From positions 24 to 64,023 of the forward strand of contig JACPOW010000076.1 of assembly GCA_016191335.1 (NCBI GenBank): 64,000 bases of DNA, written 5' to 3'. Shown piece after piece: positions 3,001 to 18,094 of the stretch (its first letter is position 1; every line of letters begins with the position of its first letter). Source of the stretch: Elusimicrobiota bacterium. GTDB lineage: Bacteria; Elusimicrobiota; Elusimicrobia; UBA1565; UBA9628. The position numbers and the translations under genes were made by a program. A model generated the notes under the pieces. That model did not search any database, was not told where the DNA came from, and was given only the letters and a program-made list of their open reading frames with translations.

Positions 3001-3159
3001 GGCGTCGAAGGCTTCGCGCTCGAGGGTGGCCTCCTGCAATATCTCGAGCTTGACCTCGGCGCAGAAGGTGGTGAGCGCGCTCGCGACGGGCGCGGCGAGC
3101 CCTAGCGCGAGGATCGCGCCGAGCGTCGCGGCAAGCCGTCGGGAGAGGCTCTTCTTCAT
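1..3159 (-). CDS. Large secreted/cell-surface repeat protein, C-terminus beyond the left window edge (signal peptide, FN3-like modules, FlgD-Ig-like segment)
   Basis: Absent from the ORF track because its stop lies outside the window. My reverse-strand translation from ATG 3159..3157 reads MKKSLSRRLAATLGAILALGLAAPVASA... and stays open to position 1 (1053 codons). I spot-checked the frame at 1..60, 1801..1860 and 2401..2460. It contains repeated modules such as APGAVTDLVA..TVNLTWSAPGEDG and APGAVTGLVA..VVLTWTAPGDDG (FN3-like). Its start shares one nt with the rhodanese stop (TGATG). Confidence 0.75.
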   Translation of the reverse strand, partial: MKKSLSRRLAATLGAILALGLAAPVASALTTFCAEVKLEILQEATLEREAFDASLKVNNNLPDSPLTDLRVNVFVKDEQGNPADDVFFIKIATLTNTNAIDGSGVVQSSTTAEIRWLIIPSTGAGGMLPGGKRYSVKATINGTSAGAAQSVTTFDDFITVYPQPSLKLEYVLPYEVFGDEPLTTGIEPIEPFPLGVRVTNIGYGTAKNFKIESAQPKIIDNKQALPVDFKLLGTVVRGTTIPDTLLVPFGDVAAGGVGQASWIMTTSLSGRFIEFTSTFTHAAELGGQLTSLIQSVTTYTLLRDVLVDLPGRDVTPDFLVNASLDRGAMQAMLDAGEQPNAELILESDQPTPLAVIEVPSTLSGTLGGSNASLTMTFAQGVSSNIWVHSSVPFNKTPGLVLQSARASDGRTLGAKNVWISKHFRKDDLTVHYRLNILDLTTGASTYSVNFDPTALDAAPGAVTDLVAATAAEGGTVNLTWSAPGEDGYTGHILGGRYMIENKIDLSTPFAPAFAQVNFATSTDPGDAESYALGGLVGNATTYLSLWTQDTGGGISEISNGATAYALPYPPRDLVLTAVSSVSAHAAWQAGNNALPIEYQVFAATAAGSVAASSSPYQDSFEREFTFAGLAPSTTYTVFGVARNTETLVMSPVATLGQFMTAPAEGDSTAPGAVTGLVATVAGSTQTAAAVVLTWTAPGDDGATGAITTGQLDLRYSSATADYASMEHQVLIATAAEPGAARSLPIEGLERGATYTFALRYADEAGNFSAASNMTTARTYEEIAFGSLALTTTTIRIEAPQASTLTATAVAYADLPLDARTALTTAKLALVGGVFDVLPEGTAFDPPARFTMRWLDENNDGIEDTLGLAESGLVLRKWSGSQWTPVPVLSRDEAANEITVEVSLLASLFGITGPTGTPPGLAGLIARPGAFTPNLDELTFEYRADEPVTATVEIRNSSNQLVRSFSDRVANPGLVLASENATFTGPGNGKSVRLRGGYAYYTEGETLSVYDLRDPAQPVRAAALQLTPANSGGAGESVEIVGSRLFVSIGAQLA

Positions 3160-3857
3160 CAATTCATCTCAAGCGGGTACTTCTTCTTGGTCCAGCCCAT
3201 GAGGCCGCCGGGCATTTCGTAGACCTTGTGGCCGTCCTCTAACAGCAGAACGGCGGCTTGACGGCTGCGGATCGAGGTGCGGTCGTAGACGAGGACGTCC
3301 CGGTCCTTCGGGAGGGCCGCCGCCTGGGTGGACATTCCTTCTAAAGGAAGGTTCTTGGCGCCTTTCAGGTGGCCCGCCGCGAATTCCGCCGCTGGGCGAA
3401 CGTCGAGGACGGTCAGGTCGCCCTTCTCCAGGCGTTCTTTGACGGCCTCTAGGGGCAGGCGGCCGGGGCGGGGCTTGTCGGCCTGCTTCGGGATGACGAC
3501 GGGGTAGCCTTTTTGGGCCCAGACGGCGAAGCCTTCGGCGAGGATGGAGACTTTGGGGTAGCCGAGGCCGGCGAGGCGTTCGGCGGCGCGGTCGCTCATG
3601 GGGCAGGGGTCTTCGGTGCAGTAGACGATGACGTGGTGTTCGCGGGGCCAGACGCCGGTGCCGATTTCGCCTTGGGGGACGTTGCGGGCGTTTTGGATGT
3701 GGCCTTTTGCGAAGTCGGAGGGCATGCGGACGTCGACGAGCTCGAAGGCGGCCTTGTTTAATTGCAAAGCCCGCAACTCGTCATGCCCTATGCGCGGGGT
3801 CGCCGCGTGCGCGGGTGCGCTCGTAATCCCAATCAATATTACCAGAGTTAATTTCAT
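3159..3857 (-). CDS. Periplasmic tandem rhodanese-domain protein (sulfurtransferase-like)
   Basis: 232-aa ORF with a signal-like N-terminus MKLTLVILIGITSAPAHA and two rhodanese-like halves. The first has a Cys loop (VIVYCTEDPCPMSDRAA). The second (VLVYDRTSIRSRQAA) has no Cys and is probably non-catalytic. Confidence 0.85.
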   Translation of the reverse strand: MKLTLVILIGITSAPAHAATPRIGHDELRALQLNKAAFELVDVRMPSDFAKGHIQNARNVPQGEIGTGVWPREHHVIVYCTEDPCPMSDRAAERLAGLGYPKVSILAEGFAVWAQKGYPVVIPKQADKPRPGRLPLEAVKERLEKGDLTVLDVRPAAEFAAGHLKGAKNLPLEGMSTQAAALPKDRDVLVYDRTSIRSRQAAVLLLEDGHKVYEMPGGLMGWTKKKYPLEMN

Positions 3858-4037: not shown

Positions 4038-4484
4038 TCAATCCTTTTTTTCATGCACAAAACGGGTATCGCCGCCAATGTATTGGCGCTGGGACCAAAA
4101 ACGACGCCTCGCAGCATAAGTGAGGATGCCTGGGGTGTCAAAGGAGTTGCTAAGCGCCCCATCACCATTTGTAATGCCTAACCCATTTTTCATGATGATA
4201 ACGCCGTATCTTGAATCGTATTCCCATGTCCCGCTGCTTCTAAGAATTCGATTTTGGGAAACAATCTCAGCCTCTTGAGTGAATGTCCGATCTGCAGCCA
4301 CGACAAAAGTATTCATTCCAAATGAATACTTCGCGACATATGTTCCTGGAATAGATTCTTCCGTTAGCGTCACGCGCCTTAATATCTGGTTTCCTGATTC
4401 CTCAAGTCCGCCCATTTTAAACCACACCACCACAATGACCACAATTAAAAGCCCGAATAGCACTAATCCTGATTTCTTCGGCAT
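4038..4484 (-). CDS. Candidate Rhs immunity protein, N-terminally membrane-anchored
   Basis: The ATG at 4484..4482 lies 2 nt after the Rhs TAG (4489..4487; reverse strand reads TAG AG ATG). I prefer this start to the track start 4538, which would overlap the toxin. It encodes 148 aa, MPKKSGLVLFGLLIVVIVVVWFKMGG..., with one N-terminal hydrophobic helix followed by a beta-rich soluble part. A 450-nt ORF in roughly 40% G+C DNA is unlikely by chance. The position immediately 3' of the toxin tip is typical of polymorphic-toxin immunity genes. Confidence 0.6.
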   Translation of the reverse strand: MPKKSGLVLFGLLIVVIVVVWFKMGGLEESGNQILRRVTLTEESIPGTYVAKYSFGMNTFVVAADRTFTQEAEIVSQNRILRSSGTWEYDSRYGVIIMKNGLGITNGDGALSNSFDTPGILTYAARRRFWSQRQYIGGDTRFVHEKKD

Positions 4485-4486
4485 CT

Positions 4487-7400
4487 CTAGTCGCACTGTT
4501 TTTTTCCTGGTTTCTTGTCTGGAATTTTTTCCGTCCATTTGAACTCTTGATATATATTCCGCATTGGCCCAATTGAGAACGGGCTGTTGGGTACTGCATG
4601 GAAGAAGAAGGAATTCATTCCGGCGGTGTTCGGAATCGTATATGTAACTGTTCCATCGCCGTTGTTTATGGCCGAGGCATTCGCAAACCCGCCGACCTGA
4701 GCTGCCGTGCTCCCCCAGTCTGAAGTGCTCGAATTCGTCAAGTTGTCCGCCTGCGCCAGGAAAGAATCATATTCAATACCCTTCTTAGACGTATTTCCTC
4801 CAGCCATAAATTGTTGTCTGAGATAATTTGCCGCCGGGGAACGCATCATTTCCTGCGTTTCGACGCTATTCTGATCGTAGTATCGGTAACGCTTTCCCAA
4901 TCCATATCTCCATTCAATAAAAAACCTGAGATTCGTCCATGGCGTTAATCCTAATGGGTCTGCAAGAAGAATCGGATTATTGTCCACATACACATACTGA
5001 TTGATGCTGCTGATTGGATCTTCCTGTAGGAACCTCCCAATATCCTGATAGTAATGCCTCGCCCTATAGAAGTACAGCCCTGTTTCCGTGTCGTACTCGC
5101 GCGAGGTGTACATGAACGGGTTTCCCACTTGTGACTGTGCGTAGATGCCGCTTCCCGTATCCTTGACCAATGTTCGCCCGAACGCCTGGTACTCGTAGAT
5201 TTCGACGGTATTTGCGCTTGAGTCCGTCAGCCCGTTGACGTTGCCTAAGGCGTCCGCGTGGTAGAAATAGTCAGTCATGTTTCGGCGAACAATCAGAGGG
5301 GAGTCGATGCCCGAACCGTGGGTGAACAGCGCGATTAAGTTGTTGTTGCCGTCTAATGTCGCCAAAACATCTTGGCCATCGTAGACATAGCGGGTTATGT
5401 TGCCGCCCGCGTTCTTCTCGACACGCCGCCCTGCCGGGTCGTACTTGTAACTCGCGATCGTGTAGGTTGAGGCATTGACCTGCACAAGCCGGTTGGCGCT
5501 GTCGTAGACGAAGGTCGTCGTGTGGCCGTTGCTTTGGTCCGTATTCGAGGCCATGTTGCCGTTGGCGTCGCTCGTATAAGTAAAGCTCGAGTCCGAGACG
5601 ATGCGGTTGGCGTTGTTGTAGCTGTAGCCACTGCGCTCCACGTCGGCGGTGCGATTGCCTACGGCATCATAGCTGAAGGTCTCGGCCTTGACCGGTAGGC
5701 TCGACATGGCCGGGTGGTTTGCCCCAGTCAGGCGGTTTAGCTGGTCGTAGGCGTAAGTGTGGCTGCCGCTAGCGTCAGTCATACCAGTTCGGTTGCCCGA
5801 GGCGTCGTAGCTGTAGTTGTTGAAGGCGATGGCTGTTTGATCGGCCGTCTTCTGATGCAGCACCTGAGATATCTGCCCGGCCGCATCGTAGGCGTAGCTC
5901 GTCCTGGTGCCGTTGGGGTAGTTCATTTGGGTGCGGCGACCCAGGGCGTCGTAAGTGAAGGTAACAATCTGCCCGAAGGGATTGGTGATACGCGTGACCC
6001 GGTCGAGGCTGTCGTAGGTATAGTTGAAGATTCCCCACGGCGTGGCCATGCTCGTACGGTTGCCGTTTGCGTCGTAACCGTAGCCGATCACGGCGCTGTG
6101 CCCGTTGGGTAGAGTCTGCACGATCTCGGTCACGCGATCGACGGCGTCGTAGCTCAGCACCAGGATCGTGCCGTTGTAACCGGAGGCCGTGAGCATGCGG
6201 CCCACGGCGTCATAGGTCATGGTGATGTTCCCCTCGGGGACGGACATTTGGATCAGACGGTCGAGCGTATCGTAGGTGAAATTGATGATCTGGTTGTTGC
6301 GGGTAGTGACGCTTTCAGGCCTGCTCTTGTCGTCGTAGCTGATCGAGGCGGCCTGATTGAGCGCGTTGACCGCGCTGGTCACACGAGCATTGGCGTCGTA
6401 GTTGAGCGTCGTAATATGGTTTTTCGCGTCCTTGACCGTCTTAGGCAACCGCCCCTCGCGGCCGTCATCGTACGTCACGACCGTCACGCCATTCTCAGCG
6501 TCGGTCACCTGCGTGACATTGTCCACGGCGTCATAAGCCATCGAAGTCTGCTTGTTGGCGGGGTCCTTGAAAGCCGTGGCGCGGCTCAGGTTGTCCCGAG
6601 TGGTCGTCGCGGTCCTTCCCAGTGGGTCGGTGACGCTCGTCAGTGCCCCGTTGCTGTTGTACGCCATGCTCGTCACATTGCCGAGTGCGTCCTTCATTCC
6701 CACCACATGCCCGAACGAGTCATAGCTCATGCGCGTCGAGTTGTTCTGTGCGTCCGTTATCTGAATCAAATTGCGCTTATCGTCATACCCCATGCTCGTC
6801 AGATTGTTTTTCGCGTCATAGACGCTGGTCAGGAAGTTCCCCCTTTCGTACGTCATCATCCGCCTGTGACCCAGTGCGTCGGTGCGAGCCTGATTGGCAA
6901 GGCTGCCGTCCGCGTTGTAGTTGGTCTGAATCTGCGTCCTGCGCCCGAGAGGATCGGTTATCTCGCGCGGATTCAGCTCTTCGTCGTAGAGAATGGTTGT
7001 CACGTTATCGGCGGGATCGATGATCTTGCTGAAGCGCTTGAGCCCGTTGTTCTCGATGGTCTCGTACTTCGTCGTATGCCCCAGGGCGTCCGTGACCGTG
7101 GCGCTCGAGCCGAATGACGCATACTGAACCCGGTTGACGCCCCCGTCCTCATTGGTCTCGATGACCTTGCCCGAAGCGTCGTAGACGAAATTCGTATGAC
7201 CGCCGTTAGGATAGGTGATCTGCGTCATCCGGTCCTGGGCGTCATAGGCGTAGGCCGTCTCATCGCCAATCGGGTCGCGCATCAAGATGCGGCGGCCCTG
7301 CGGATCGTACTCGAAGGCCGTGACGCGCCCCGCCCAGTCGGTGGCGCTGGTCAACCGGTCACCCGCGTAGGCGAGGTTGATGTAGCGGCCGTGGCTGTCC

Positions 7401-10400
7401 TCGATCCGGTCGACTCGCCCATCGTTGCTGCGCACATAACGGATAACGCTGCCGTTGCGGTCGGCGTACTGCGTCAGACGGTAGGCGCCAGTCGAGTTGT
7501 AGTATTCATAGGACTCCACCTCGCCCTGAGCCGTTGTGACAACGTAAGTCGGCGCCACCATGCCGCTGCCGCCGCATGAAGCAGGCCGAGGGTCCGGGCC
7601 GGGACAGATTGATAGATTTCCCCCGAGCACGACGCCTCCCGAGCCGCAACCCCCGCCGCTGCTCTCGGACCACTGGACGCCGTGATGCTCCCTGAAGCGG
7701 ACCAAGCCGCTGCACGGCACCGGCGGGGAATCTTTGGGCTTGGATATGTTTCGGTCCACGTTCACCGGGCGGGCGAACAGCGGTCCGTCGCCGTTGAGCG
7801 GCTGGAGAAGGTCGCCGATCGGGGCGTAGACCGTGTTGCTGCCGTCCGGGCCCAGCACCCCATACGTGCCGTCGGGGTTGATCCGGATATCGTAGCCGAA
7901 GTCGGCGGCCCAGCCCACGCCGTATTCTCCGCCCGAGCCATTGCCCAGATAGCGGAAGTCGAGCCCGATGCCGGGAGAGCCGCAGTTTTTCTTGAAAGCG
8001 GATTTGACGAAGTTCACAGCTCCTCTGAGGATGTCCACCAAGGCACTGGGATTGAGCGGCGGCATCGAGAGGCCCTTGTGCCCGGTCTTCGGCCCAACGG
8101 AGCACTGCGAACCGCTCTGCACTCCCGGGGTCGCCGCCGCGATGGCGACAGCCGGAGCCGCGAATGAAACACCGCCTCCGCCGCCGCCGCCCCCGCCCCC
8201 TCCGCCGCCGCTGCAGTTCATGCCGTCCAAGTTGCCCAACAGGAAGCTCAACCCGGGATAAGACCGCTCCTCCTCGTTGCCCGCCGCGCACTCGCTCGTG
8301 CCCACGACCGTCGACTGAGCCCCCTCGCAGCTCGCATGGACGAGGTAGAGCTTGACCGGCACCACCACGGACTGCCCCGGCAGGATCTCCGGGATCTCCG
8401 TGAACGGCAAAGTGACCTGCACCGCCGCGGACCCCGCGAAGTTGACCTTGACCTTGGTCGCCTTGATGAGCCCCCGGTTCGTGATCGTGAACTGGCTATA
8501 AGCGGTCTGCCCGCCCACCATCTTGATGTCGATGAGCGGCGGATCCGTCACGAGCACCGGCGCCGGCACGTCGGTCTTGAAGGTCGCCTGAAGCGCGATC
8601 GTGTACTTGTCCTGGATCGTGGTCGGCGTGACTTTCCATTCGTAGGTGACGACCGACGTGACTAATATCGCCTCGACCACGTTGGAAACGCCCGGCTCGA
8701 TGACGACGGTCCCCGACTTGGCCTGGAACCCCGACGACTCCGCCCGCCAAACGTAGTTGCCCGAGGGTATGTCGGAGAAGCTCGCCACGCCGTTGAGGTC
8801 GGCGGAGACCTTGAAGGTGATGCCCGAGACGTCGAGGCTGATGAGGGTGACGTCCGCGCCCGGTATGCCCTCGCCCTGACCTTGAGCGGTGCGCGGCTTG
8901 TCCGCGTTGATGACGCTGACCAAGGCCCCGCCCTTGCGCGTGGAGGTCACGGCCACCGAGCCCAGGATCGGCAGGGCCGGCATGTTGGCCGAGAGGACCT
9001 GGAGCAGCGGGTTGGGGTTGTAGGTCTGGTTCGGTTGGGAAATGGAAGGAGCGATGGCCAAGGTCACCGAGACGTTGCCCCCGGGCGGTATGTCGCCCAG
9101 ATGAGGCGGGCCCTGTATGGTGACGAAGGAGAGCGACGGAGTGGAGAGCTCCAGGTCGCGCCAGGTGTCGAAGCCCTGGTTGCGCAGGACGATGGTCTGC
9201 AGGCGCGTCTCCCCGCCCAGGACGCCGACCAGGAACTGCTGCGGCTCGGCAGCGGGGATGACGACCGCGGGCGAGACGGAGGCGACGACGGGCATGGTGC
9301 GGAAGTAGCCGTGCTGCTCGGTCGCGATCACGTTGACCGTGCCGCTCGAGGCGGTGGGCGAGGCGGAGATGATGACCCCGATCGGCGTCTCGGCGCCCGC
9401 GGCGAGCGAGACCGGGACGTTGTCGAGGACGACGCTCAGGCCCGTGCCCGACTCGGTCGGGGTCGTGATCGCGATCCCGGTCAAAGCCTCGGAGCCTATG
9501 TTCTTGAGGATGGTCTCGAAGCGGAAGGAGCTGTTCTGGGCGAGGGCCACCTTATAGCTCGTGTAGTTGTAGCTGAAGCCCACGATGGTGAAGGTGGACT
9601 GAGCCGAGCCGGCGATGGCCGAGGGATGGAAGGCGGAGACGGAGTACAGGCCCGCCTCGTTGGGGAGCGGGTTGAAGACCGTGGTGAAGGCGCCGGAGCT
9701 GTTCGTGACCGCGGTGAGGCGCCGGTCGTAACCCTCGGAGAGGATGCGCACCGCGACCAAAGAGTTCGCGACGGTGGAGCCGGTCGCGTCGAAGGCCGTG
9801 CCGGACAAGGTCACGCTCGAGCCCTGGTCGTAGAAGGCGAATTGAGGAGCGACCAAAGCGCGGTACGGAAGCTGCTGGGTCACGGCCTGGGACACCGCGC
9901 TCGTGAAGCCGCGGCGCCCGGGGATGCGCACGAAGCCCAAGTCGTAGGTGGGCGTGCTCACCGCCGCCTCGATGGAGAGGCTGCCGGGAGCGGAGCCCGG
10001 CACGGGGACGAGCACCGGGTCGGTGAGCAAGGAGCCGCCCGGAGGCACGGTCACGAAGAATATCTGCCGCCCCGCGACCAAGGTGATCGCAGCACCCTCG
10101 GTCTGCTTGATCCCGGCCGAGGCGAGGACCGCGCCGTCGGTCGTGCGCAGGCGGACGGTCACGTCGTCGACCGCCGCCGTCGTGGAGTTCGCGATCTGCG
10201 CGGTCACGATGTCCATGGACGCCGAGCCGCGGTTGTAGAGGCGCACGCGCACGGGGCTCAAGCCCCCCGCCAGCAGGACGTCCGGCAGGGCCTCGATCAG
10301 CGGCTGGACCGGCTCGGCCGCGGTCACGGAGAACAGGCGGGTCAAGGAGACGGCGGAGCCCGGGTCGGTCGGAAGGGCGAGGGTCAGGCGCACCGCGGCG

Positions 10401-13400
10401 GAGGCCGCGAGGTCCACCGGAGTCGCCACCACGGCCGGCAAGGTCCCGGTCTGACCGGCGGGTACGGAGATGGAGTTCGCTGTCGCAGAGGCCGCGACCA
10501 CTCCGCCCGCGATCACTTCCGCGAGAGCGGGCCCCACCGTCAACGATTGGGCCGAAGCGTTGACGGCCCTGAGCGTCAGAGCGTCGAAGAAGCCGCGCGT
10601 GAGCGTCGGCGCTGAGAGGCCCAAAGTCACGGCCGGGACCGTCGCGCGAGCCTTGGGGCCTTCCAAGCCGCGCGCGTCCACGGCGGAGACTTCGTAGATA
10701 TGCGCCCCGCTGGTGAAGCTCACGTCCTCATAGGAGGCACCCGCGTGGAGGCTGGAGCTGATGCGGCTTCCGTCGCGATAGACGCGATAAGCGACGACGT
10801 CCGCCTCGGGGGCGGTCCAGGTCAGGGACGCCGCGTCCGCGATCTTGACGGCGAGCGAGAGAGGCGCCCCGGGGGCGGCGTCCACGGAGAAGGAGATCGT
10901 CTGCGACGCCACGTTGCCCGCCTCGTCCGTCGCGGAGAGAAGGAGGCGGTAGGCGCCGTCGCGGGAGATCAGGTCCCCGGAGCGGTACGCCACGGTGCTG
11001 CCCATAGTGTCGTTGACGAGGAGGAAGCTCGACGCGGCGAGGTGCAGGTCGGAGGCCGAGACCGTGAAGGAGGAGGCGCCGACGAGCAAGGCGCCCTCGG
11101 CCACGCCCGCCGAGAGGGCCGGGGCCGTCTTGTCCAGGGTGAAGGCCACAGTGACCGTCGCGCTGTGGCTCTCGAAGTCGGTCGCCGTGATCGAGAGCGC
11201 GTGCGCGCCCTCTCCGGAGACGGTCGAGCCGGAGGCGAAGGCCTGGCCGTCGAGCAAGGAGACGATCGAGGCGGGGTTCAGGTTCGCGTCGGTCACGGTG
11301 AAGGCGATCACGAGGTCCTGAGCCGACATCTGGCCGTTCTCCACGCCGACGATCTCGATCGTCGGCGCGGCCTGGTCGAAGTCCAAAGTCGCCGTGTTCG
11401 ACGGGATGCTCTCGTTGCCGGCCGCGTCGCGGGCCGTGACCACGTAGCGGTAGGTCCCGTCGCCGGTCGGCGAGTCGATGAAGGGCGAGACCGCCGTGCG
11501 CGGCACGAGGCCGACCAAGGTCGTGATCGGGAAGGTGGCGCGGTACAGGCGGTAGTTGGCCGTGTCGGCGCCGCCCTGCGTCCAGGTGAGCTGGATCTGG
11601 CTGAAGCCGTTGAGGGAGGCGGCGAGGGACTGCGGCTCGACCGGCGGGATGGAGTCCGCGGTGCCGGAGACCGCGGCGTCCGCGCTCGCGTTGCCGGCCG
11701 CGTCGACGGCGGAGATGAGGTAGGCGTGCGGGCCGTCGGCGGCGAAGTCGGAGAAGGCGCCGGTGCGGTCCACCGCGGGAGCGACGGTCGTGATCTGGAC
11801 GGCGTCGCGCAGGACGCGGTAGTGGACCGGCAGTTCGCCCGAGTTGCCGCTCCAGGAGAGGTTGATGACGCCGCCGGGGGCGGGGTTGGCGTGGGGCAGG
11901 ATCGGCGGGTTGGGCGCCAGCGTGTCCACCACGAACGAGGTGGCGGCTCCGGTCAGGATGGAGGAGGCGTTGCCCAAGGCGTCGGTCGCGGAATAGGCGA
12001 AGAGCGCCGTGCCCTGAGGCGTATTGGCGGCGACCGTCAGTTCCGCGGTCCAGGTCCGGCCGTCGAGCGCTCCCGCTTCGCCGACGCTCAGCGCTTGAGC
12101 GGCGCCGCCGTTCGGCGTCCAGGACAAGGCCGGGGCGGAGGCGGCCGGCTCATCGAGCGTCAAGGTCACGCCCAGGGCCCCGGCGTTTATGGGAGACGCG
12201 CGCGAGAGCGCGACCTCGGCGACAGGGCCGCGCGTGTCGAGCGCCACGGTGGCGCCGGAGGTGAGGACCGTGCCCACGTTCGCGGCGAGGTCGCGTCCCT
12301 CGAAGGCGAAGCTCGCGACGCCCGGGTTCATCTCCCCCGTTACGGTCAAGGTTCCGCGCCACACCGTCCCCGTCACGCCGTCCAAGGTCTGGGCCGCGGG
12401 CGAGCCCTGGTAAGGGGTGAAGGTGAGCACCGGGACCGCGGAGAGCACCTCGCTGAGGGTCAAGGTGAACGGGTAAGCGCCGGGCCCGAGGACCGGCGCC
12501 GTCGTTAACGTCACGCGCGCGCTGGGCGCATTGCGGTCGACGAAGGCGTACGGAGCGTCCGACAAGAGGCTTTCGTTGGCCGCGCCGTCGAGCGCGGTCA
12601 CCGCGTAGAAGTACAGGTCGTCGGCCGGGGGCGTGTCCGTGAACTCGAGCGCCGTGATCCCGTTGCCCACGAGGAAGGCGTAGCCCGGCGCGGCGTCGCC
12701 GGGGATCAGGTCGAGGTCGTCGGTGGAGCGGTAGACGCGGTAGGAGGCCGCGGCCTTGCCGGGTCCCGCCTGCCAGGCGATCTTGGCCCGTCCGCCGGAG
12801 AGCAAGGCCGTCTGGACCAGGATCGGAGGGTTCGGAGCCGTCGTGGTATAGGTCAGATGAACGGGCGCCGACGGGCCGCTGAAGCCGCGCGGCTCGAAGG
12901 CGAGGGCGGTCAAGGTCAGCTCCCCCTCCGCGGGAAGCAGGACGAAGGCGCCCCAATACCCCGAGCCTCCGACCTGGACCGAGGCGAGGTCCACGCCGCC
13001 GATCTGGAGCTGGACGGTCGTCCCGACGGGTGCGGTGCCGGTGACGGTCACGGTCGCGGAGTTGGTGACGAAGCCGTCCGCCGGGGAGGAGATGACGGGC
13101 GCGGCGGGCGGGGCGTAGTTCACGGTGACGGCGCGCGCCACGGTCGCCGAGGACCCGAAGGCGTCGAACGCCGTCGCGCTGACGGTCCGCGCGCCGTCGA
13201 CGACGCCGACGAGGTTCCAGAGGACCTCGAACGGGGCCTGGGTGGACGACGCGAACAGGGAGCCGTCCACGCGGTAGTCGACGCGGACGACGCCGGTGTT
13301 GTCCGTGACCGACGGCGTCAGGTAGCGCGGGCGGGAGACTATCGCGCCCTCGTTCAGGTCGAAGGCGGAGATCACGGGCGGGACGGGGTCGAAGAGGAAG

Positions 13401-16400
13401 GTGTTCGACGCGTAGGAGCGGTTGTCGACGGCGTCCTCCGCGTAGACGCGGTAGTAGGCCGCGCCGGCGCCGACCGGGACGGTGACGGTCACGGTCGAGC
13501 CCGGGGCCTGGGCGGCGACGACCGTCGTCGAGGCGTCCGCGCCGAACAGGCCGCTCGGGGAGCTCACGAGAAGCTGACGCGCGACGCCGGAGAAGTCGTC
13601 GCTCGGGGCGGTCCAGGCCAGGTCCAACTCGCCCGCCTGGGGCCGGTAGTCCGTGAAGCGCAGGTCGGCGATCGCGGACGGCGGCGTCAGGTCGTAGGGC
13701 GCCGTCGTGAAAACGTAGGCGCTGAGCAGGCCGGAGCCGTGAGCGGCGCGCACGCGGTAGTGGTAGTCGCCGGCGACGCCCGGGAAGTCGATGTAGGCGG
13801 TCGTGGGCGTGGAGGCGATGACGACGTACTCGCCGTCGGCGGCGGTGGCGCGCTCGACGCGGTAGTCGAGGGCGGGCGTGGCCCCGGCGGAGGCGCCCCA
13901 CGTCAGCTCGACGAGGCCGGTCTGGCGGTCGACGGCGGCGGAGACGGCGCCGGGCGCCGCGGGCGGCTCGGCGAAGGAGGCGACGCGCAGGGGGGCCGAG
14001 GCGGAGCTCTCTCCCCGGGCCTCGAACGCGACGGCGGTCAGGAGGTAGTCCCCCCGGCCGGGGAAGGCGGCCTCGGGCAGGCTCCACTGGCCGATCACGT
14101 CGACGGCCGAGGCGCCGAGGAAGGCGGCGTCGGCGTAGACGCTGACCCCGGTGAGCAGCGGGGCGTAGCCCTGGACCGTGAAGGTCGTCGCGAGCGTCGA
14201 GAAGCCGTCGGACGGGACGAAGACCGTGGGCGGGACCGGCGTCGAGTAGGCGACGGTGACCGAGCGGGAGATCGACGTCTGGTTGCCGTCGTCGTCCGTG
14301 GCGACGGCGGCGAGCGTATGGGGACCGTCGGTCTCGCTCCGGACGTCCCAGAAGAACTGATGGCTGACGGTCGTCGTCGCGCGCGCGATGCCGTCCACCT
14401 CGAAGCGCACGGATGCGGAGGTGAAGTCGTCGGAGGCGTTGGTGATGACCGTGTACGGGCGCGACAAGGTCTCGCCCTCCGCGGGCTGGACGAAGGACAC
14501 CGAGGGCGGCGTCGCGTCGAAGCGGACGGACTGGACGCCCGAGAGCGGGCTCTCCCCGCCGAGCTCGCCGAGGGAGGAGACGGTGTAGAAGTAGAACGCC
14601 GAGGCGCCGGGGAAGTCCGCGTAGGCCGTGTCCGTCGTGCCGCCGAGAAGGGCCAGGTTTCCAACCTCGGTGCCGCGGTAGACGCGGTAGGAGGCCGGGG
14701 CCGGCTCCGGCGCGGTCCAGGACAAAGTCACCTTCGCCTCGGCGCGGCTGAACAGCGCCGTCACGTTGAAAGGAGGCTGCAGCGCGCCGCTCGAGGTGCG
14801 CGTCGAGCCGGACGGGGAGAAGTCGGAGAGCGTGAGCCCCAGGTTGTAGGCGCGCACGCGCGCGGTGTAGTCGGTGCCGGGGGCCAGGCCCATGGCCGTG
14901 TAGGTCGAGCCGCGGTGATAGAAGCCGACGGGCAGCGGCGTGCTGACGTGGGAGGCGAAGCCGTCGGTCGACAGCGACAGCTCGTAGCTCGCGTCGGGGC
15001 CGTTGCCGCCGTCCGTCCAGGACCAGGTCACGCTGGTCTCGAACACCTCCGCGGCGGCGACCGCGCCGGGGACGGCGGGGTCCGCCGCGGACCAGGCGCA
15101 GCTGTACTCGCCCGCGATCAGCAGGTTGACGCCGGCCACGCACAGGAACCGGCTTCCCGCCGGCGTCAGCCCCGCGTCTATGTAGGAAGTCGTGTTGACG
15201 GAGGCGAAAGGCGGGGTGTCGGTGGAGGTCGCCAGGAAGTAGGCGGTGGCGCCTTGCGCGGCGTTCCAGGACCACGCGATCGAGGACACGCCGAGGGCCT
15301 GGCCCGCGAAGCCGGAGGGCGGCGGCGGGCCGACATTGCCGGTCGGGCCGTCCCAGGTGAACGTCGTCTCGGCCGGGGCGGCTTCGTGGCCGACGAAGTC
15401 GCCGGTGAGCGCCAGGATCCGGTAATGATGGCCCTGCACCAGCCGCTCGTCGAGGCGGCCGAAGTTCCCGTCGTTGACGCTCGAGATGCGCACCGACCAC
15501 ACGAGGTCGCTCGGGATCCCCATGAACTCCGAGTACGCGAACTCGGGGGCGACCGCGGCCGTGGTCCAGCCCGGCAAAGAGGAGTCCCACCACAGGCCAG
15601 CGTCGGTGTCCTGGAAGGCCAGCTTGACGTCCTGATTGACGCCGTTGGCGTCCGACGCGGAGCCCTCGACGGCCGGCAGGGCGGCGATGGTGGAGCCCGC
15701 GACGGGGAAGGACACCCCGACGGCCGGGGCGACGGTGTCGAGGCCGATCGTGAAGTCGATGCCGGAGGCGGACGCGCCCGGGGCCAAGGAGACCGGCGCG
15801 AAGGCGTGATAGAAGCCGATCGGCGTCGAGGGGTCGATGGAGTCCGGGTCCTCTCCGAGGAAGGCGCCGATCGCGTAGTCGCCGGGGGTCTCGATGGCGA
15901 CGGAGAAGGGCACCGACGCGCCGCCGGTCGAAGGGACGGCGACGAGGAAGGTCGCCGCGTTGAAGCCGTCCGCCGAGGCGACGATGGTCACGGTCGAGCC
16001 GAAGGGCGCACCCCCCTCGACGACCACGGAGCCCTCGAGCGTCCCTTCCGAGAGCACGGCGCAGGAGGGAAGGCCGTCGGAGCCGGGGACGGACTGCGCG
16101 CCGACGAAGGCGCCCGGCGTCGAGCCGTACACGACCCAGGGCGCGTCGCCCGCGTCGAGCGCGATGCCGGTCATGTTGAGGGACTCGTCGGTGCGGGGGT
16201 AGCCCGGCTCGAGCCCTCCGAAGCGGTCGTAGGACCAGACCGCCGCCGTGTCAGAGGAGCGGCCCAGGACCCAGGGGCTCCCGTCGGAGGCCAACGCGAT
16301 GCTCCGTCCGTTCGAGGCGGTCTCCGCGGTGTTGTGCCAGTAGCGCTGGAGCTCGACGGTCCCGTTCATGTCGAAGCGGAACAGGGCCTGCTGCCGCTGG

Positions 16401-17242
16401 TCTCCGCAACCGGGGAACAATTGGGAGGCCGTGACCCAGACCTTGTCCCCCGCCGCGATCACGATGCCCGGCTCGATCTCGTCGAGCGTCGCGTACGCCG
16501 ACCCGCGATACACCGGGAAGCCGTTCCGCGGGTTCCCGTCCTGGTCGTAGCGCCACAGCGCCAGGTCGTACGCCGTCGCGCCCGGGGCCAGGCTGACGCC
16601 CGCCGACCAGACGTCGCCGGAGGAGTCCACCGCGACGGAGAGGGCGCCGTCGAGCACGCCCTCCGCGCGGCGCTGGTATTTAGGGAAGCCGGACGACATG
16701 GAGCCGTCCGGCTCGAAGCGCCAGAGGGCGAAGCGGATGCTGCCCGTCGAGTCGATCACCTGGGGCGCCGTGACCCAGGCGCGGCTGGAGCCGTCCACCG
16801 CGACGCCGCCCGAGTAGATGTCGTGGTCGCCGTACACCGCCGCCGAGCTGATCAAGGTGAGCCCGTCGGCGGAGACGTGCCAGACGCCGAACCCGGCGGG
16901 GCCGCCGTCGCTGGCGCCGCCGCTCACCCAGGCGTCGCCGTCCGGGCCGGAGGCGATGGCGAAGCTCGCGTCCTGCGCGGCGCTGGACAAGGAGACCTCT
17001 CCGGCCAGGGAGCCGCCGGAGTCGAAGCGGCGCAGCGTGAACGAGCCGGCCGCGTCCGAGACGACGACCCACTGCCGTCCCGACGCGTCGCGGTGGAAGG
17101 CGTGGGAGCCGTTCTGCGCGCGCGCGGGCGCGGCGAGGAGGAGCAGAGCCGCGGCCGCCGGGAGGATCAGGGACGCGAAAAAAGCCGGGACCCTCCCTCT
17201 CGGGGGGCGCTCGGCGCGGACGGCGGGCACGGCAAACGGCAT
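4487..17242 (-). CDS. Giant secreted Rhs/YD-repeat polymorphic toxin (4251 aa)
   Basis: Single uninterrupted ORF. It begins with a signal peptide (..LLLLAAPARA/QNG) and SBBP-like repeats (DAWVSGG, RAWVTAP, DVWSAGV, KVWVTAS, SPWVLGRS). Many Ig/FN3/CARDB/carboxypeptidase-regulatory-like modules follow, then a 13-Gly run. Dozens of YD repeats come next (YDAQDRMTQITYPNGGHTNFVYDASGKVIE, YDALGRRTQMNYPNGTRTSYAYDAAGQ...). The canonical core end is YRARHYYQDIGRFLQEDP..NNPILLADPLGL, followed by a 152-aa tail. Confidence 0.95.
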   Translation of the reverse strand: MPFAVPAVRAERPPRGRVPAFFASLILPAAAALLLLAAPARAQNGSHAFHRDASGRQWVVVSDAAGSFTLRRFDSGGSLAGEVSLSSAAQDASFAIASGPDGDAWVSGGASDGGPAGFGVWHVSADGLTLISSAAVYGDHDIYSGGVAVDGSSRAWVTAPQVIDSTGSIRFALWRFEPDGSMSSGFPKYQRRAEGVLDGALSVAVDSSGDVWSAGVSLAPGATAYDLALWRYDQDGNPRNGFPVYRGSAYATLDEIEPGIVIAAGDKVWVTASQLFPGCGDQRQQALFRFDMNGTVELQRYWHNTAETASNGRSIALASDGSPWVLGRSSDTAAVWSYDRFGGLEPGYPRTDESLNMTGIALDAGDAPWVVYGSTPGAFVGAQSVPGSDGLPSCAVLSEGTLEGSVVVEGGAPFGSTVTIVASADGFNAATFLVAVPSTGGASVPFSVAIETPGDYAIGAFLGEDPDSIDPSTPIGFYHAFAPVSLAPGASASGIDFTIGLDTVAPAVGVSFPVAGSTIAALPAVEGSASDANGVNQDVKLAFQDTDAGLWWDSSLPGWTTAAVAPEFAYSEFMGIPSDLVWSVRISSVNDGNFGRLDERLVQGHHYRILALTGDFVGHEAAPAETTFTWDGPTGNVGPPPPSGFAGQALGVSSIAWSWNAAQGATAYFLATSTDTPPFASVNTTSYIDAGLTPAGSRFLCVAGVNLLIAGEYSCAWSAADPAVPGAVAAAEVFETSVTWSWTDGGNGPDASYELSLSTDGFASHVSTPLPVGFYHRGSTYTAMGLAPGTDYTARVRAYNLGLTLSDFSPSGSTRTSSGALQPPFNVTALFSRAEAKVTLSWTAPEPAPASYRVYRGTEVGNLALLGGTTDTAYADFPGASAFYFYTVSSLGELGGESPLSGVQSVRFDATPPSVSFVQPAEGETLSRPYTVITNASDDFTSASVRFEVDGIARATTTVSHQFFWDVRSETDGPHTLAAVATDDDGNQTSISRSVTVAYSTPVPPTVFVPSDGFSTLATTFTVQGYAPLLTGVSVYADAAFLGASAVDVIGQWSLPEAAFPGRGDYLLTAVAFEARGESSASAPLRVASFAEPPAAPGAVSAAVDRQTGLVELTWGASAGATPALDYRVERATAADGEYVVIASTPTTAYIDFPGVAGDYHYRVRAAHGSGLLSAYVFTTAPYDLTPPSAIADLRFTDYRPQAGELDLAWTAPSDDFSGVARQLLVSSPSGLFGADASTTVVAAQAPGSTVTVTVPVGAGAAYYRVYAEDAVDNRSYASNTFLFDPVPPVISAFDLNEGAIVSRPRYLTPSVTDNTGVVRVDYRVDGSLFASSTQAPFEVLWNLVGVVDGARTVSATAFDAFGSSATVARAVTVNYAPPAAPVISSPADGFVTNSATVTVTGTAPVGTTVQLQIGGVDLASVQVGGSGYWGAFVLLPAEGELTLTALAFEPRGFSGPSAPVHLTYTTTAPNPPILVQTALLSGGRAKIAWQAGPGKAAASYRVYRSTDDLDLIPGDAAPGYAFLVGNGITALEFTDTPPADDLYFYAVTALDGAANESLLSDAPYAFVDRNAPSARVTLTTAPVLGPGAYPFTLTLSEVLSAVPVLTFTPYQGSPAAQTLDGVTGTVWRGTLTVTGEMNPGVASFAFEGRDLAANVGTVLTSGATVALDTRGPVAEVALSRASPINAGALGVTLTLDEPAASAPALSWTPNGGAAQALSVGEAGALDGRTWTAELTVAANTPQGTALFAYSATDALGNASSILTGAATSFVVDTLAPNPPILPHANPAPGGVINLSWSGNSGELPVHYRVLRDAVQITTVAPAVDRTGAFSDFAADGPHAYLISAVDAAGNASADAAVSGTADSIPPVEPQSLAASLNGFSQIQLTWTQGGADTANYRLYRATFPITTLVGLVPRTAVSPFIDSPTGDGTYRYVVTARDAAGNESIPSNTATLDFDQAAPTIEIVGVENGQMSAQDLVIAFTVTDANLNPASIVSLLDGQAFASGSTVSGEGAHALSITATDFESHSATVTVAFTLDKTAPALSAGVAEGALLVGASSFTVSASDLHLAASSFLLVNDTMGSTVAYRSGDLISRDGAYRLLLSATDEAGNVASQTISFSVDAAPGAPLSLAVKIADAASLTWTAPEADVVAYRVYRDGSRISSSLHAGASYEDVSFTSGAHIYEVSAVDARGLEGPKARATVPAVTLGLSAPTLTRGFFDALTLRAVNASAQSLTVGPALAEVIAGGVVAASATANSISVPAGQTGTLPAVVATPVDLAASAAVRLTLALPTDPGSAVSLTRLFSVTAAEPVQPLIEALPDVLLAGGLSPVRVRLYNRGSASMDIVTAQIANSTTAAVDDVTVRLRTTDGAVLASAGIKQTEGAAITLVAGRQIFFVTVPPGGSLLTDPVLVPVPGSAPGSLSIEAAVSTPTYDLGFVRIPGRRGFTSAVSQAVTQQLPYRALVAPQFAFYDQGSSVTLSGTAFDATGSTVANSLVAVRILSEGYDRRLTAVTNSSGAFTTVFNPLPNEAGLYSVSAFHPSAIAGSAQSTFTIVGFSYNYTSYKVALAQNSSFRFETILKNIGSEALTGIAITTPTESGTGLSVVLDNVPVSLAAGAETPIGVIISASPTASSGTVNVIATEQHGYFRTMPVVASVSPAVVIPAAEPQQFLVGVLGGETRLQTIVLRNQGFDTWRDLELSTPSLSFVTIQGPPHLGDIPPGGNVSVTLAIAPSISQPNQTYNPNPLLQVLSANMPALPILGSVAVTSTRKGGALVSVINADKPRTAQGQGEGIPGADVTLISLDVSGITFKVSADLNGVASFSDIPSGNYVWRAESSGFQAKSGTVVIEPGVSNVVEAILVTSVVTYEWKVTPTTIQDKYTIALQATFKTDVPAPVLVTDPPLIDIKMVGGQTAYSQFTITNRGLIKATKVKVNFAGSAAVQVTLPFTEIPEILPGQSVVVPVKLYLVHASCEGAQSTVVGTSECAAGNEEERSYPGLSFLLGNLDGMNCSGGGGGGGGGGGGGVSFAAPAVAIAAATPGVQSGSQCSVGPKTGHKGLSMPPLNPSALVDILRGAVNFVKSAFKKNCGSPGIGLDFRYLGNGSGGEYGVGWAADFGYDIRINPDGTYGVLGPDGSNTVYAPIGDLLQPLNGDGPLFARPVNVDRNISKPKDSPPVPCSGLVRFREHHGVQWSESSGGGCGSGGVVLGGNLSICPGPDPRPASCGGSGMVAPTYVVTTAQGEVESYEYYNSTGAYRLTQYADRNGSVIRYVRSNDGRVDRIEDSHGRYINLAYAGDRLTSATDWAGRVTAFEYDPQGRRILMRDPIGDETAYAYDAQDRMTQITYPNGGHTNFVYDASGKVIETNEDGGVNRVQYASFGSSATVTDALGHTTKYETIENNGLKRFSKIIDPADNVTTILYDEELNPREITDPLGRRTQIQTNYNADGSLANQARTDALGHRRMMTYERGNFLTSVYDAKNNLTSMGYDDKRNLIQITDAQNNSTRMSYDSFGHVVGMKDALGNVTSMAYNSNGALTSVTDPLGRTATTTRDNLSRATAFKDPANKQTSMAYDAVDNVTQVTDAENGVTVVTYDDGREGRLPKTVKDAKNHITTLNYDANARVTSAVNALNQAASISYDDKSRPESVTTRNNQIINFTYDTLDRLIQMSVPEGNITMTYDAVGRMLTASGYNGTILVLSYDAVDRVTEIVQTLPNGHSAVIGYGYDANGNRTSMATPWGIFNYTYDSLDRVTRITNPFGQIVTFTYDALGRRTQMNYPNGTRTSYAYDAAGQISQVLHQKTADQTAIAFNNYSYDASGNRTGMTDASGSHTYAYDQLNRLTGANHPAMSSLPVKAETFSYDAVGNRTADVERSGYSYNNANRIVSDSSFTYTSDANGNMASNTDQSNGHTTTFVYDSANRLVQVNASTYTIASYKYDPAGRRVEKNAGGNITRYVYDGQDVLATLDGNNNLIALFTHGSGIDSPLIVRRNMTDYFYHADALGNVNGLTDSSANTVEIYEYQAFGRTLVKDTGSGIYAQSQVGNPFMYTSREYDTETGLYFYRARHYYQDIGRFLQEDPISSINQYVYVDNNPILLADPLGLTPWTNLRFFIEWRYGLGKRYRYYDQNSVETQEMMRSPAANYLRQQFMAGGNTSKKGIEYDSFLAQADNLTNSSTSDWGSTAAQVGGFANASAINNGDGTVTYTIPNTAGMNSFFFHAVPNSPFSIGPMRNIYQEFKWTEKIPDKKPGKKQCD
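4490..4945 (-). other. C-terminal toxin domain (152 aa) of unrecognised family
   Basis: Sequence after DPLGL: TPWTNLRFFIEWRYGLGKRYRYYDQNSVETQEMMRSPAANYLRQQFMAGG...WGSTAAQVGGFANASAINNGDGTVTYTIPNTAGMNSFFFHAVPNSPF...KKQCD. I see no HNH, deaminase, ART, RNase or peptidase motif. This is the lowest-G+C coding DNA in the window. Confidence 0.6.
4946..7980 (-). other. Rhs/YD-repeat shell region ending at the DPLGL motif (start approximate)
   Basis: YD-repeat periodicity is visible from roughly ..YRLTQYADRNGSVIRYVR.. to DPLGL, which is encoded at 4960..4946. G+C here is visibly lower than in the upstream two-thirds of the gene. Confidence 0.7.
8171..8209 (-). repeat. 13-codon poly-glycine tract (GGN)13 between the adhesin-like region and the Rhs core
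   Basis: The reverse strand reads TGC AGC GGC GGC GGA GGG GGC GGG GGC GGC GGC GGC GGA GGC GGT GTT, giving C S G13 V. Confidence 0.95.
17117..17242 (-). other. Sec-type signal peptide of the Rhs protein (aa 1-42)
   Basis: MPFAVPAVRAERPPRGRVPAFFASLILPAAAALLLLAAPARA: a basic n-region, a hydrophobic core and an A-x-A cleavage motif. Confidence 0.6.
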
Positions 17243-17398: not shown

Positions 17399-18094
17399 TT
17401 ACGGGAGGAGCCGGTAGCCGCAGCCGCGGATCGTTTCCAGGCAGGCCGCGCGGGCGCCGAGCTTGCGTCGCAAAGTGGAGAGGCGGGTCTCGAGCGTGTT
17501 GGGCGAGTGCCCATTCTCCCCCCACACCGTTTCATGGAGGTACGCCGCGCTGTGGACGACTCCGGGGCGGCGCAGGAAGATCATGAGGATCTCCGCTTCC
17601 TTCGGCTCCAGGTGCTCGACGCGCCCGTCCACCAGGAGGCGGCCGTCGACGGGATCGAACTGGAAACCGGGGCCGCTGACCAGCGGAGACCTCTCGGGCG
17701 CGCGGTTGAGGCGCAGGACGGCGAAGAGCCGCGCGTGGAACAGCTCCGCGGTGCAGGGCTTGGACAGGTAGTCGTCGGCGCCTCGCTCCAGGCCGGCGAT
17801 GACCTCGCGCTCGGCCTTGCGGCCGCTGAGGACGAGGACGGGCAGGTCCCGGGTCTCCTTATTAGAGCGGATGGCGCGCAGGAGGTCCAGGCCGTCGCCG
17901 TCCCCGAGGGTCCGGTCGAGGAGCACGGCGTCGAAGCGCGCGCGAGCGAGCTCCCGGCGAGCGGCGGCCAGGGAGTGAGCGGCGACGGAGTCGAAGGCCG
18001 GCTCGCGGATGTCGCGCAGCCAGAGGCGGATGAGATCCGCGTTCAGGCGGTCGTCTTCGACGACGAGGACGTTAAGCCGGGGAGGGGGCGGCAC
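17399..18094 (-). CDS. OmpR-family response regulator (receiver + winged-helix), no adjacent kinase
   Basis: Receiver motifs: VLVVEDD, phospho-acceptor context AVLLDRTLGDGDG, and YLSKP. The C-terminal trans_reg_C-like part reads LEPKEAEILMIFLRRPG...TLETRLSTLRRKL...IRGCGYRL. Confidence 0.9.
   Translation of the reverse strand: MPPPPRLNVLVVEDDRLNADLIRLWLRDIREPAFDSVAAHSLAAARRELARARFDAVLLDRTLGDGDGLDLLRAIRSNKETRDLPVLVLSGRKAEREVIAGLERGADDYLSKPCTAELFHARLFAVLRLNRAPERSPLVSGPGFQFDPVDGRLLVDGRVEHLEPKEAEILMIFLRRPGVVHSAAYLHETVWGENGHSPNTLETRLSTLRRKLGARAACLETIRGCGYRLLP

Follow-up and report, generated by a model that had tools for sequence, protein, structure and literature searches.

We analysed a stretch of 64,000 nucleotides (the window) from one contig of an uncultured Elusimicrobiota bacterium, a groundwater metagenome-assembled genome (MAG) of 3.66 Mb in 135 contigs, 93.9% complete, and in particular the open reading frame (ORF) of 4,251 codons at positions 4487..17242 of its minus strand. 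We propose, with a probability that we put at roughly 0.6, that this ORF encodes a polymorphic Rhs toxin that is exported by the Sec pathway and independent of any type VI secretion system (T6SS), and that in it two components of a conserved toxin locus with several genes have become naturally fused. The proposal starts from what can be read directly from the DNA, namely how the protein is built, how its tip varies between orthologues, that T6SS and Tc genes are missing, that the locus is conserved, and that there are gene fusions of two kinds, stalk to Rhs and stalk to a domain of the partner protein. Few bacterial weapons are commoner than Rhs toxins, and their delivery is understood only for the T6SS and Tc systems.

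The frame is single and unbroken, and its GC content by codon position (0.61/0.53/0.89) has the pattern of a real high-GC gene, for which reasons we count it as one. From the N-terminus to the C-terminus it is composed of the following parts:

17117..17242, minus strand: signal peptide, residues 1-42, read from the translation
16043..17116, minus strand: beta-propeller head, residues ~43-400, from an AlphaFold2 (AF2) model, Foldseek and a weak DUF5122 match
8879..16042, minus strand: stalk, residues 401-2788, ~25 Ig-like/FN3/Big modules (about 25-26 in all), from Pfam
8669..8878, minus strand: TTR or carboxypeptidase-regulatory-like domain (CarboxypepD_reg), residues 2789-2858, PF13620 at 36.8 bits with the segment scanned alone
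8210..8668, minus strand: last stalk domain, CARDB-like by weak matches, with conserved Cys 2972, 2985 and 3010
8171..8209, minus strand: Gly13 tract, residues 3012-3024, read from the translation
7487..8170, minus strand: Cys-containing connector and Rhs N-terminal plug region, residues 3025-3252
4946..7486, minus strand: Rhs/YD shell and Rhs-associated core, residues 3253-4099, from Pfam/NCBIfam and PDB sequence matches
4487..4945, minus strand: C-terminal toxin domain, residues 4100-4251 (152 residues), of a family without a Pfam/NCBIfam name in the libraries used

The N-terminus, which is identical in the orthologue P0002, has an n-region with four Arg, a hydrophobic core of 19 residues and a signal peptidase I-type site between ARA and Q, with no lipobox Cys. 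For residues 43-520, AF2 (predicted local distance difference test, pLDDT, 76) gives a beta-propeller followed by a beta-sandwich, and the best Foldseek matches of this head model are propellers, CylK first and then glycoside hydrolases, PHL/PLL lectins and NHL domains. The propeller is matched only weakly by sequence profiles (DUF5122 and delta-60, not SBBP), and a PDB sequence search with the N-terminal 434 residues gave no match. In other members of the stalk family a beta-helix head replaces the propeller. The stalk behind it, with Pfam matches to fn3, Big_7, Big_13, Big_3_3 and RGI_lyase, is kept in the family members P0002-P0014, and its last domain weakly matches CARDB (residues 2895-2970), DUF7507 and HYDIN-Ig. 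The initial annotation, made from the sequence of the window, had read one ORF with a signal peptide, SBBP-like propeller repeats, Ig/FN3/CARDB/carboxypeptidase-regulatory-like modules, a Gly13 hinge and an Rhs shell with its toxin; we find the same succession, except that the SBBP assignment gives way to the weak DUF5122/delta-60 matches.

After the Gly tract the connector begins with Cys 3047 and Cys 3087, and the sequence GSPGIG then marks the start of the Rhs module, ~225 residues in all separating the tract from the first YD repeat. Residues 3025-3252 have no family match, and a PDB sequence search with them returned only noise from the Gly linkers of single-chain antibody fragments (scFv). 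Because homology across the stalk family stops within this connector, we place a module boundary there. What follows has the makeup of an Rhs/YD polymorphic toxin, with shell repeats (RHS_repeat 222 bits, YD_repeat_2x 178 bits), a core ending in PxxxxDPxGL (Rhs_assc_core, TIGR03696, 65 bits at residues 4018-4099) and a variable C-terminal domain; the aspartyl autoprotease motif at the shell end, DPISS-x-DPLGL, is intact, with DPLGL at residue 4095, and the PDB sequence matches are to the Rhs shells 8h8a, 7q97, 8qja and Tse5 (E 3e-45).

The joining of stalk and Rhs in one chain is not, in our view, an artefact of assembly, since the probable source sample has also been assembled separately (Logan) and a contig of that assembly runs through the stalk/Gly13/Rhs junction with zero differences, and since orthologues from other samples, at 87% (P0002) and 52% (P0003) identity, carry the same fusion; the architecture first described for this window is therefore shared with related genomes. 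Between 4001 and 8000 the GC content falls stepwise, from ~0.71 in the stalk to 0.61 in the Rhs shell and 0.51 in the toxin tip and immunity gene (genome 0.69), which suggests that the 3' modules may have been acquired or exchanged separately from the stalk.

The identity to both orthologues spans the N-terminus to residue ~4100 and then ends. In P0003 the tip is TseH and the genes for Imm58 and an ankyrin protein come next, so that, judging by these alignments, the tip is polymorphic between orthologues. A Pfam scan of the window's own tip gave no match above noise. At E <= 0.001 the tip's family numbers 304 cluster representatives, of which 150 were listed; these 150 carry it at their C-terminus or close to it, and an Rhs core mostly precedes it. 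A scan of 72 members turned up no PAAR, LXG or VgrG domain; it did show one true teneurin-like protein and one protein of SpvB/TcdB type. The candidate for the cognate immunity gene is the following:

4038..4538, minus strand: immunity candidate of 166 residues with one N-terminal membrane anchor, overlapping the end of the toxin gene, low in GC

It has no family match in a Pfam scan, and no conserved pairing with the toxin was seen: in locus L030 a homologue of the toxin is followed by a multi-pass membrane protein unrelated to it. As both immunity candidates seen for the toxin family are membrane proteins, they weakly point to the cell envelope as the putative target. The L030 toxin homologue, P0042, is an Rhs protein of 1,201 residues, its toxin being of this family (52% identity), encoded directly after genes for a T2SSE/MshEN-type ATPase and a Peptidase_C39, a neighbourhood that is possibly a further link between Sec-type Rhs toxins and machinery of the type IV filament class.

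Let us consider whether the protein might serve mainly in teneurin-like adhesion or cell-cell recognition, the caged C-terminal domain being no weapon at all. The succession of Ig modules, TTR, plug and YD shell resembles that of the teneurin-like proteins (TLPs), for which a signalling role is allowed by the authors who described them (PMC13018210). Such a role is hard to reconcile with a polymorphic tip that in P0003 is a known toxin family, TseH, accompanied by Imm58, with an autoprotease motif that is intact, and with a low-GC cassette of tip and immunity gene typical of exchanged toxin modules, and we consider it very unlikely. We therefore continue with the protein as a toxin and turn to the cell that makes it.

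A profile search of the whole genome found BamA (188 bits) and three secretins, from which we conclude that the cell is diderm, as the initial annotation had supposed from an apparent outer-membrane barrel and lipoproteins in the window. The same search of this 93.9% complete MAG found no TssC, PAAR, VgrG/Phage_GPD or SpvB (TcA itself was not searched for), extending to the whole genome the earlier remark that the neighbouring genes offer no T6SS, PAAR, VgrG or Tc context. Across the phylum, the T6SS sheath marker TssC was found in 0 of 301 Elusimicrobiota genomes (98 genera), and the Rhs-associated core in 46 of the 301 genomes and 33 of the 98 genera, the longest frame having 5,067 residues; with Rhs cores present and TssC missing throughout, Rhs toxins appear to be T6SS-independent in this phylum as a rule. 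The 4,251-residue protein itself has, by Pfam/NCBIfam (E <= 0.01 for the wall-binding domain), no PAAR, SpvB or other adaptor domain, no domain of the two-partner secretion (TPS) or haemagglutinin-activity type (TpsB was not searched for separately) and no wall-binding domain. We considered three known classes for it and rejected them, the T6SS effectors (no PAAR in protein or genome, no TssC, no VgrG), the TcB/TcC class of Tc toxins (no SpvB in protein or genome, TcA not being included in the search) and the CdiA/FhaB class (no TPS domain in the protein). One might still argue that it is ordinary T6SS or Tc cargo with its machinery in the missing ~6% of a genome that is in 135 contigs; with TssC missing from the 98 genera, PAAR, VgrG and SpvB missing from the genome, and the protein itself devoid of adaptor domains and bearing a Sec signal peptide, this is scarcely credible.

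Three of the genes around the ORF recur:

17399..18094, minus strand: OmpR-type response regulator (Response_reg and Trans_reg_C), directly upstream
3159..3857, minus strand: secreted double rhodanese-like protein (Pfam Rhodanese 125 bits, signal peptide read directly)
1..3162, minus strand: partner giant, cut by the contig end, with signal peptide, lone Cys34, N-domain of ~430 residues and FN3 modules

The window and all related locus types with downstream DNA (6/6, at 37-87% identity) have one gene order, an OmpR-type regulator where upstream DNA is present, the stalk gene with or without Rhs, small variable genes, the double rhodanese and the partner giant. The stalk gene carries Rhs in six locus types and lacks it in L029 (P0014). 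In L016-L020, L026 and L029 the gene immediately upstream of the stalk encodes a regulator with Trans_reg_C, which in L026 is without a receiver domain. Neither the stalk-end module nor the N-domain of the partner has a paralogue elsewhere in the genome. The window's partner giant probably continues on contig C19, where it would end in a C-terminal domain (CTD) like those of type IX secretion systems (T9SS), followed by a PorV-like barrel. The complete partner orthologue in L020 ends in such a CTD (158.6 bits against a CTD profile made from the window's own genome), and in L020, L027 and C19 alike the partner is followed by a PorV/UPF0164-like barrel gene.

The N-domain of the partner carries an invariant Cys 3-6 residues past the signal-peptidase site, within the motif CA.VK(I/L)EI.QE.T.ERQAFDA. 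In the L020 partner it is the sole Cys in 2,199-2,203 residues, exported giants being cysteine-poor overall. We found the domain in at least 347 proteins of several phyla, including Xanthomonas, Shewanella and Hydrogenophaga (P0315-P0434 are among them), with no Pfam/NCBIfam model covering it in the members scanned. The lone Cys is kept in all 17 of the N-domain proteins examined, and often it is the only Cys of the whole protein. Two known roles for such a residue were rejected: a lipobox, position -1 being F/V/I with a signal peptidase I-type site upstream, and a thioester motif, the fourth position of which is not conserved.

At the other end of the putative connection, all members of the stalk family, including those without Rhs, share the tail motif IPEI.PGQSVVVP...HASC...C.AG...C, followed by a Gly-rich tract and then by further Cys. 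The Gly-rich tract stands at the matching site in P0002, P0004, P0006, P0008, P0010 and P0028, and it forms the natural C-terminus of a Shewanella stalk. The stalk-only members (P0014 in L029, and P0028) have a short Cys-rich tail after the Cys/poly-Gly segment; that of P0014 also has a hydrophobic segment, and downstream, where Rhs would otherwise stand, is an unannotated gene of 548 codons.

Two kinds of relatives show how these pieces are combined elsewhere. P0033 and P0034 each unite the stalk end with the partner N-domain in one polypeptide, the alignment beginning exactly at the Cys. In Xanthomonas arboricola (L033) and Shewanella khirikhana, stalk, Rhs, immunity gene and partner are separate adjacent genes: in the former a stalk giant is followed by a Sec-signal Rhs, a small gene, an N-domain protein (38% identical to the N-domain query, 98% of which is covered) and then by pseudopilin, T2SSF, T2SSE and secretin genes, and in the latter a stalk of 6,822 residues with a Cys/poly-Gly tail is followed by a Sec-signal Rhs, a DUF4304 gene and an N-domain protein. 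From the separation of stalk and Rhs in these relatives, together with the Shewanella stalk that ends in Cys/poly-Gly, we read the ORF of the window as a stalk-Rhs fusion made at the natural tail of the stalk. The window thus holds the same stalk, Sec-type Rhs and lone-Cys partner, the first two of them fused. The genome has in addition a second, short Rhs of 1,236 residues (C7:1871-5578, minus strand) with a signal peptide of its own and GSPGIAG soon after it. This short Rhs has a different tip with a hydrophobic segment and is followed by a candidate immunity gene of 212 codons and transposase-like ORFs, near the end of the contig.

We picture three components. The first would be an adhesin-like stalk with a variable head, Ig/FN3 modules, TTR and CARDB-like domains and the Cys/poly-Gly tail. 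The second would be an Rhs cage of Sec type, its C-terminal toxin variable and its immunity gene coming next; in the window the stalk would join it at the poly-Gly tail, in the place otherwise taken by the signal peptide of the Rhs. The third, encoded downstream, would be a second secreted giant, the mature N-terminus of which would present the lone Cys and the N-domain. After Sec export and cutting by signal peptidase I, the Rhs core perhaps cleaves itself at DPLGL with the toxin remaining caged; stalk, cage and partner might then form one extracellular or surface assembly, the head of which would bind neighbouring bacteria so that an envelope-acting toxin could be delivered.

In the rhodanese, the loop of the first domain, YC(T/S/A/G)xxxC, is a CX4C loop without Arg, and in the second domain the catalytic Cys is replaced by Asp. 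A rhodanese with this loop lies between the two giants in 7/7 loci of the Elusimicrobiota type (the window, L016, L018, L020, L027, L028 and L029); it is absent beside the P0033 and P0034 fusions, and the loci of Xanthomonas and Shewanella lack it too. Its neighbour in L028 is a 570-residue AhpC/Redoxin protein.

How the Rhs protein would cross the outer membrane is, as the initial annotation recognised, a real question, and the genome offers a sorting system that had been overlooked there, as had the conserved partner genes. A CTD profile made from the genome shows that 14 ORFs strongly and two more weakly end in a domain of ~110 residues with the consensus YAFPNP...VRVYDLSGRK...GVYxF...KTGKVGVIK, which weakly matches the T9SS family Por_Secre_tail. 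The 14 strong ones, of up to 5,060 residues, are on contigs C7, C12, C19, C23, C25, C34, C35, C47, C63, C71, C114, C118, C124 and C129, and the two weaker ones on C16 and C104; on C7, paralogues of the head module of the Rhs protein stand within such CTD-bearing giants. This shared CTD has the appearance of a signal, specific to the phylum, by which giant surface proteins are sorted. A further outer-membrane protein of 1,849 residues, bearing a signal peptide and ending in Phe, is a compact homologue of SprA/Sov, the T9SS translocon (C81:49788-55337, minus strand; locus L025); it matches TIGR04189 at 170 bits (E 4.6e-50), under the cut-off of 200 bits, and its relatives at 52-87% identity are all 'hypothetical protein' entries from Elusimicrobia/Elusimicrobiota MAGs. 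The SprA homologue, the CTDs and the PorV-like barrels are the demonstrated components of this T9SS-like system; a search for GldM gave no match in the genome, nor did it in the positive controls. A genome-wide look for export systems hence finds no T6SS and a T9SS-like one, of which the Rhs protein bears no CTD: neither an internal nor a C-terminal T9SS CTD was found in it or its relatives by the genome-specific profile, and there is no Por_Secre_tail match.

A few further observations concern the envelope genes. A CpaB/RcpC-like gene, lipoprotein-like by its N-terminal sequence, follows the SprA homologue. At C99:16658-23559 a protein of 1,158 residues and one of 291 residues with a PorV-like N-terminal motif are encoded directly upstream of a Flp/Tad-like operon, called by inspection only from flp-like small genes, a CpaB-like gene, a secretin and a TadZ/CpaF-like ATPase. 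In the window, the 675-codon ORF at 19855..21908 (minus strand) is really two genes, its Pfam MFS match covering only residues 307-633 and the orthologous loci having separate calls of 292 and 345 residues; the 292-residue product (21030..21908) was taken as an outer-membrane beta-barrel in the initial annotation, and it is indeed like an outer-membrane protein in its signal peptide and terminal Phe, without any family match to support a closer assignment.

Most likely, the Rhs protein exits the cell along with the partner or bound to it. We prefer this putative outer-membrane route because in Elusimicrobiota it is the partner, and not the Rhs protein, that has the T9SS-like CTD and the PorV-like barrel, and because the locus in Xanthomonas precedes T2SS-like genes. 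Two other ways out deserve weighing. The protein might be a diffusible, bacteriocin-like Rhs toxin that passes a secretin-based system akin to type II secretion systems (T2SS) without cell contact or any role of the partner, its stalk merely binding the target. Table 1 of Zhang 2012 has signal-peptide Rhs toxins of all bacteria, diderm phyla included, as 'T2SS/Sec-dependent' (PMC3482391), and Bcn-A of Xanthomonas perforans, an Rhs bacteriocin, is active in the >100 kDa fraction of culture supernatant (PMC7259588). Rhs families of Xanthomonas and Ralstonia are linked to gspG, pseudopilin, T2SSF, T2SSE and secretin genes follow the X. arboricola locus, and the genome studied here has several T2SSE/F paralogues alongside its three secretins. 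However, no T2SS-like genes adjoin the Elusimicrobiota loci examined, and two of the three secretins look, from gene order by inspection only, like those of type IV pilus and Tad systems. A protein of ~450 kDa with a rigid Rhs cage, moreover, far exceeds typical T2SS cargo, and the strictly conserved partner giant and the stalk-partner fusions would be left unexplained. On balance we think this route rather unlikely.

The other possibility is that the protein simply accumulates in the periplasm, with no dedicated route across the outer membrane, and is released by vesicles or by lysis of a subpopulation. It would fit a protein with no recognisable outer-membrane sorting signal, and also an immunity candidate anchored in the membrane, if the soluble domain of the latter is periplasmic, as we assume from its charged N-terminus. 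A stalk of ~26 modules with a lectin-like head is, on the other hand, what extracellular adhesins typically have, CTD-bearing surface giants of the same genome share the head module, and the conserved partners of the locus favour organised assembly; we regard periplasmic accumulation as quite improbable.

Several points weigh against the proposal of a partner-assisted, Sec-exported fusion toxin and should be kept in mind. The signal peptides, of the 4,251-residue protein and of the others, were judged by eye and no predictor was run. The Rhs protein, lacking a T9SS-like CTD, a TPS domain and a lipobox, carries no recognised outer-membrane sorting signal. The physical association of stalk, Rhs and partner is argued solely from synteny and gene fusions. 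The AF2 model of residues 2780-3420 (alignment of three sequences, pLDDT 31) is unusable, and the link of the partner fragment on C84 to contig C19 comes from a 60% identity to the orthologue. A dedicated disulfide from the lone Cys of the partner to the odd-numbered Cys cluster at the stalk end, made via the CX4C rhodanese, is a speculation, and a weakened one, because the lone Cys is kept also in loci that have no rhodanese and so is not specific evidence for a disulfide to the stalk. Finally, the sequence has been recovered from DNA metagenomes only.

We would go one step further, tentatively and with more doubt than confidence. Stalk, cage and lone-Cys partner might constitute a toxin-delivery fibre independent of any single secretion system, the tail of the stalk docking either Rhs or partner and the partner acting as a lineage-specific ticket through the outer membrane. 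The parts would be joined by gene fusion in some lineages and post-translationally in others, possibly with disulfides aided by the rhodanese, and the ticket would differ, Elusimicrobiota using a T9SS-like CTD and a PorV-like barrel and Xanthomonas a T2SS-like system. If true, this would amount to an unrecognised, widespread, T6SS-independent way in which diderms deploy Rhs toxins. The exit of Sec-exported diderm Rhs proteins and their route to the target are a gap that the TLP paper states explicitly (PMC13018210), and a whole phylum with Rhs toxins and no detectable TssC gives a concrete handle on it. The partner gene set is common to culturable Xanthomonas and Shewanella, the natural gene fusions indicate which proteins cooperate, and the same core carries two different candidate outer-membrane routes.

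Lastly, we compare the protein with systems already described. A Sec-dependent Rhs toxin in a diderm is an already known kind of protein; what appears to be undescribed in the literature searched is the fusion into one giant protein, the phylum in which it occurs and the conserved three-part locus whose outer-membrane partners differ by lineage. The initial annotation was right that the protein, in a diderm, is an Rhs toxin of Sec type whose N-terminal part is adhesin-like, and too narrow in its background that diderm Rhs proteins normally belong to T6SS or Tc systems, for which the compilation of Zhang 2012, Bcn-A, the gspG-linked families and the TLPs are counter-precedents. Nor does its 'WapA-style' label fit: WapA of Bacillus subtilis is likewise an Rhs toxin that carries a Sec signal peptide and lacks an injection machine, but it is anchored to a thick monoderm wall by wall-binding repeats, whereas none was detected here and the cell has an outer membrane, on which grounds the WapA class was rejected. 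The T6SS Rhs effectors (RhsA, Tse5, RhsP) share the homologous shell, the autoprotease core and the logic of toxin and immunity, and differ in that the protein of the window has a Sec signal and no PAAR/VgrG-binding N-terminus, with no T6SS in its genome or in the phylum sample.

Among toxins without a known injection machine, the TANFOR toxins of Bacteroidota have a signal peptide and no CTD and are encoded beside giant T9SS cargo, for which their authors hypothesised T9SS export (PMC7073777). They are alike in being large, with a signal peptide, a C-terminal toxin, no T9SS CTD and a CTD-bearing giant as neighbour; the protein of the window, unlike them, has no TANFOR domain, keeps its payload in an Rhs cage and belongs to another phylum. 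The TLPs (2026) are Sec-exported proteins with adhesin modules, TTR, TIP, FN-plug, NHL and YD shell, and no delivery machine is known for them (PMC13018210). Sec export, N-terminal adhesin modules, a TTR before the plug, the YD shell, an intact DPxG and a polymorphic tip with immunity gene are all shared, and the shell matches the TLP structure 9pt5 by sequence (E 3e-27; the TLP entries in the PDB are 9pt5 and 9ifo). At the TIP position, between TTR and plug, the protein of the window has the weakly matched CARDB-like domain, it has no NHL/TEN_NHL/FN-plug match between the Gly tract and the shell, and its sole propeller lies 2,600 residues upstream; true membership of the TLPs was rejected for lack of the FN-plug/NHL/YD superfold. 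Gram-negative TLPs are reported to have a lipoprotein signal, in contrast to the signal peptidase I-type site here, the six phyla listed for them do not include Elusimicrobiota, and the protein of the window is about twice (~2x) their size.

The gspG-linked Rhs toxins of Xanthomonas and Ralstonia, which include the largest Xanthomonas family, XRhs F VIII (180 toxins), and RRhs F II (56) of Ralstonia (bioRxiv 10.1101/2025.05.08.652813), are again T6SS-independent diderm toxins that carry a signal peptide of Sec type. In X. arboricola the locus L033, which we liken to the window by its gene set only, has the same stalk (Big_7, Big_13, CarboxypepD_reg), Rhs, small gene and lone-Cys N-domain protein. 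Stalk and Rhs are separate in L033 and T2SS-like genes follow, whereas in the window they are fused through Gly13 and no such genes adjoin; relative to L033, the partner in loci of the window type gains Kelch/NHL modules, the T9SS-like CTD and the PorV-like barrel, and the secreted rhodanese is inserted.

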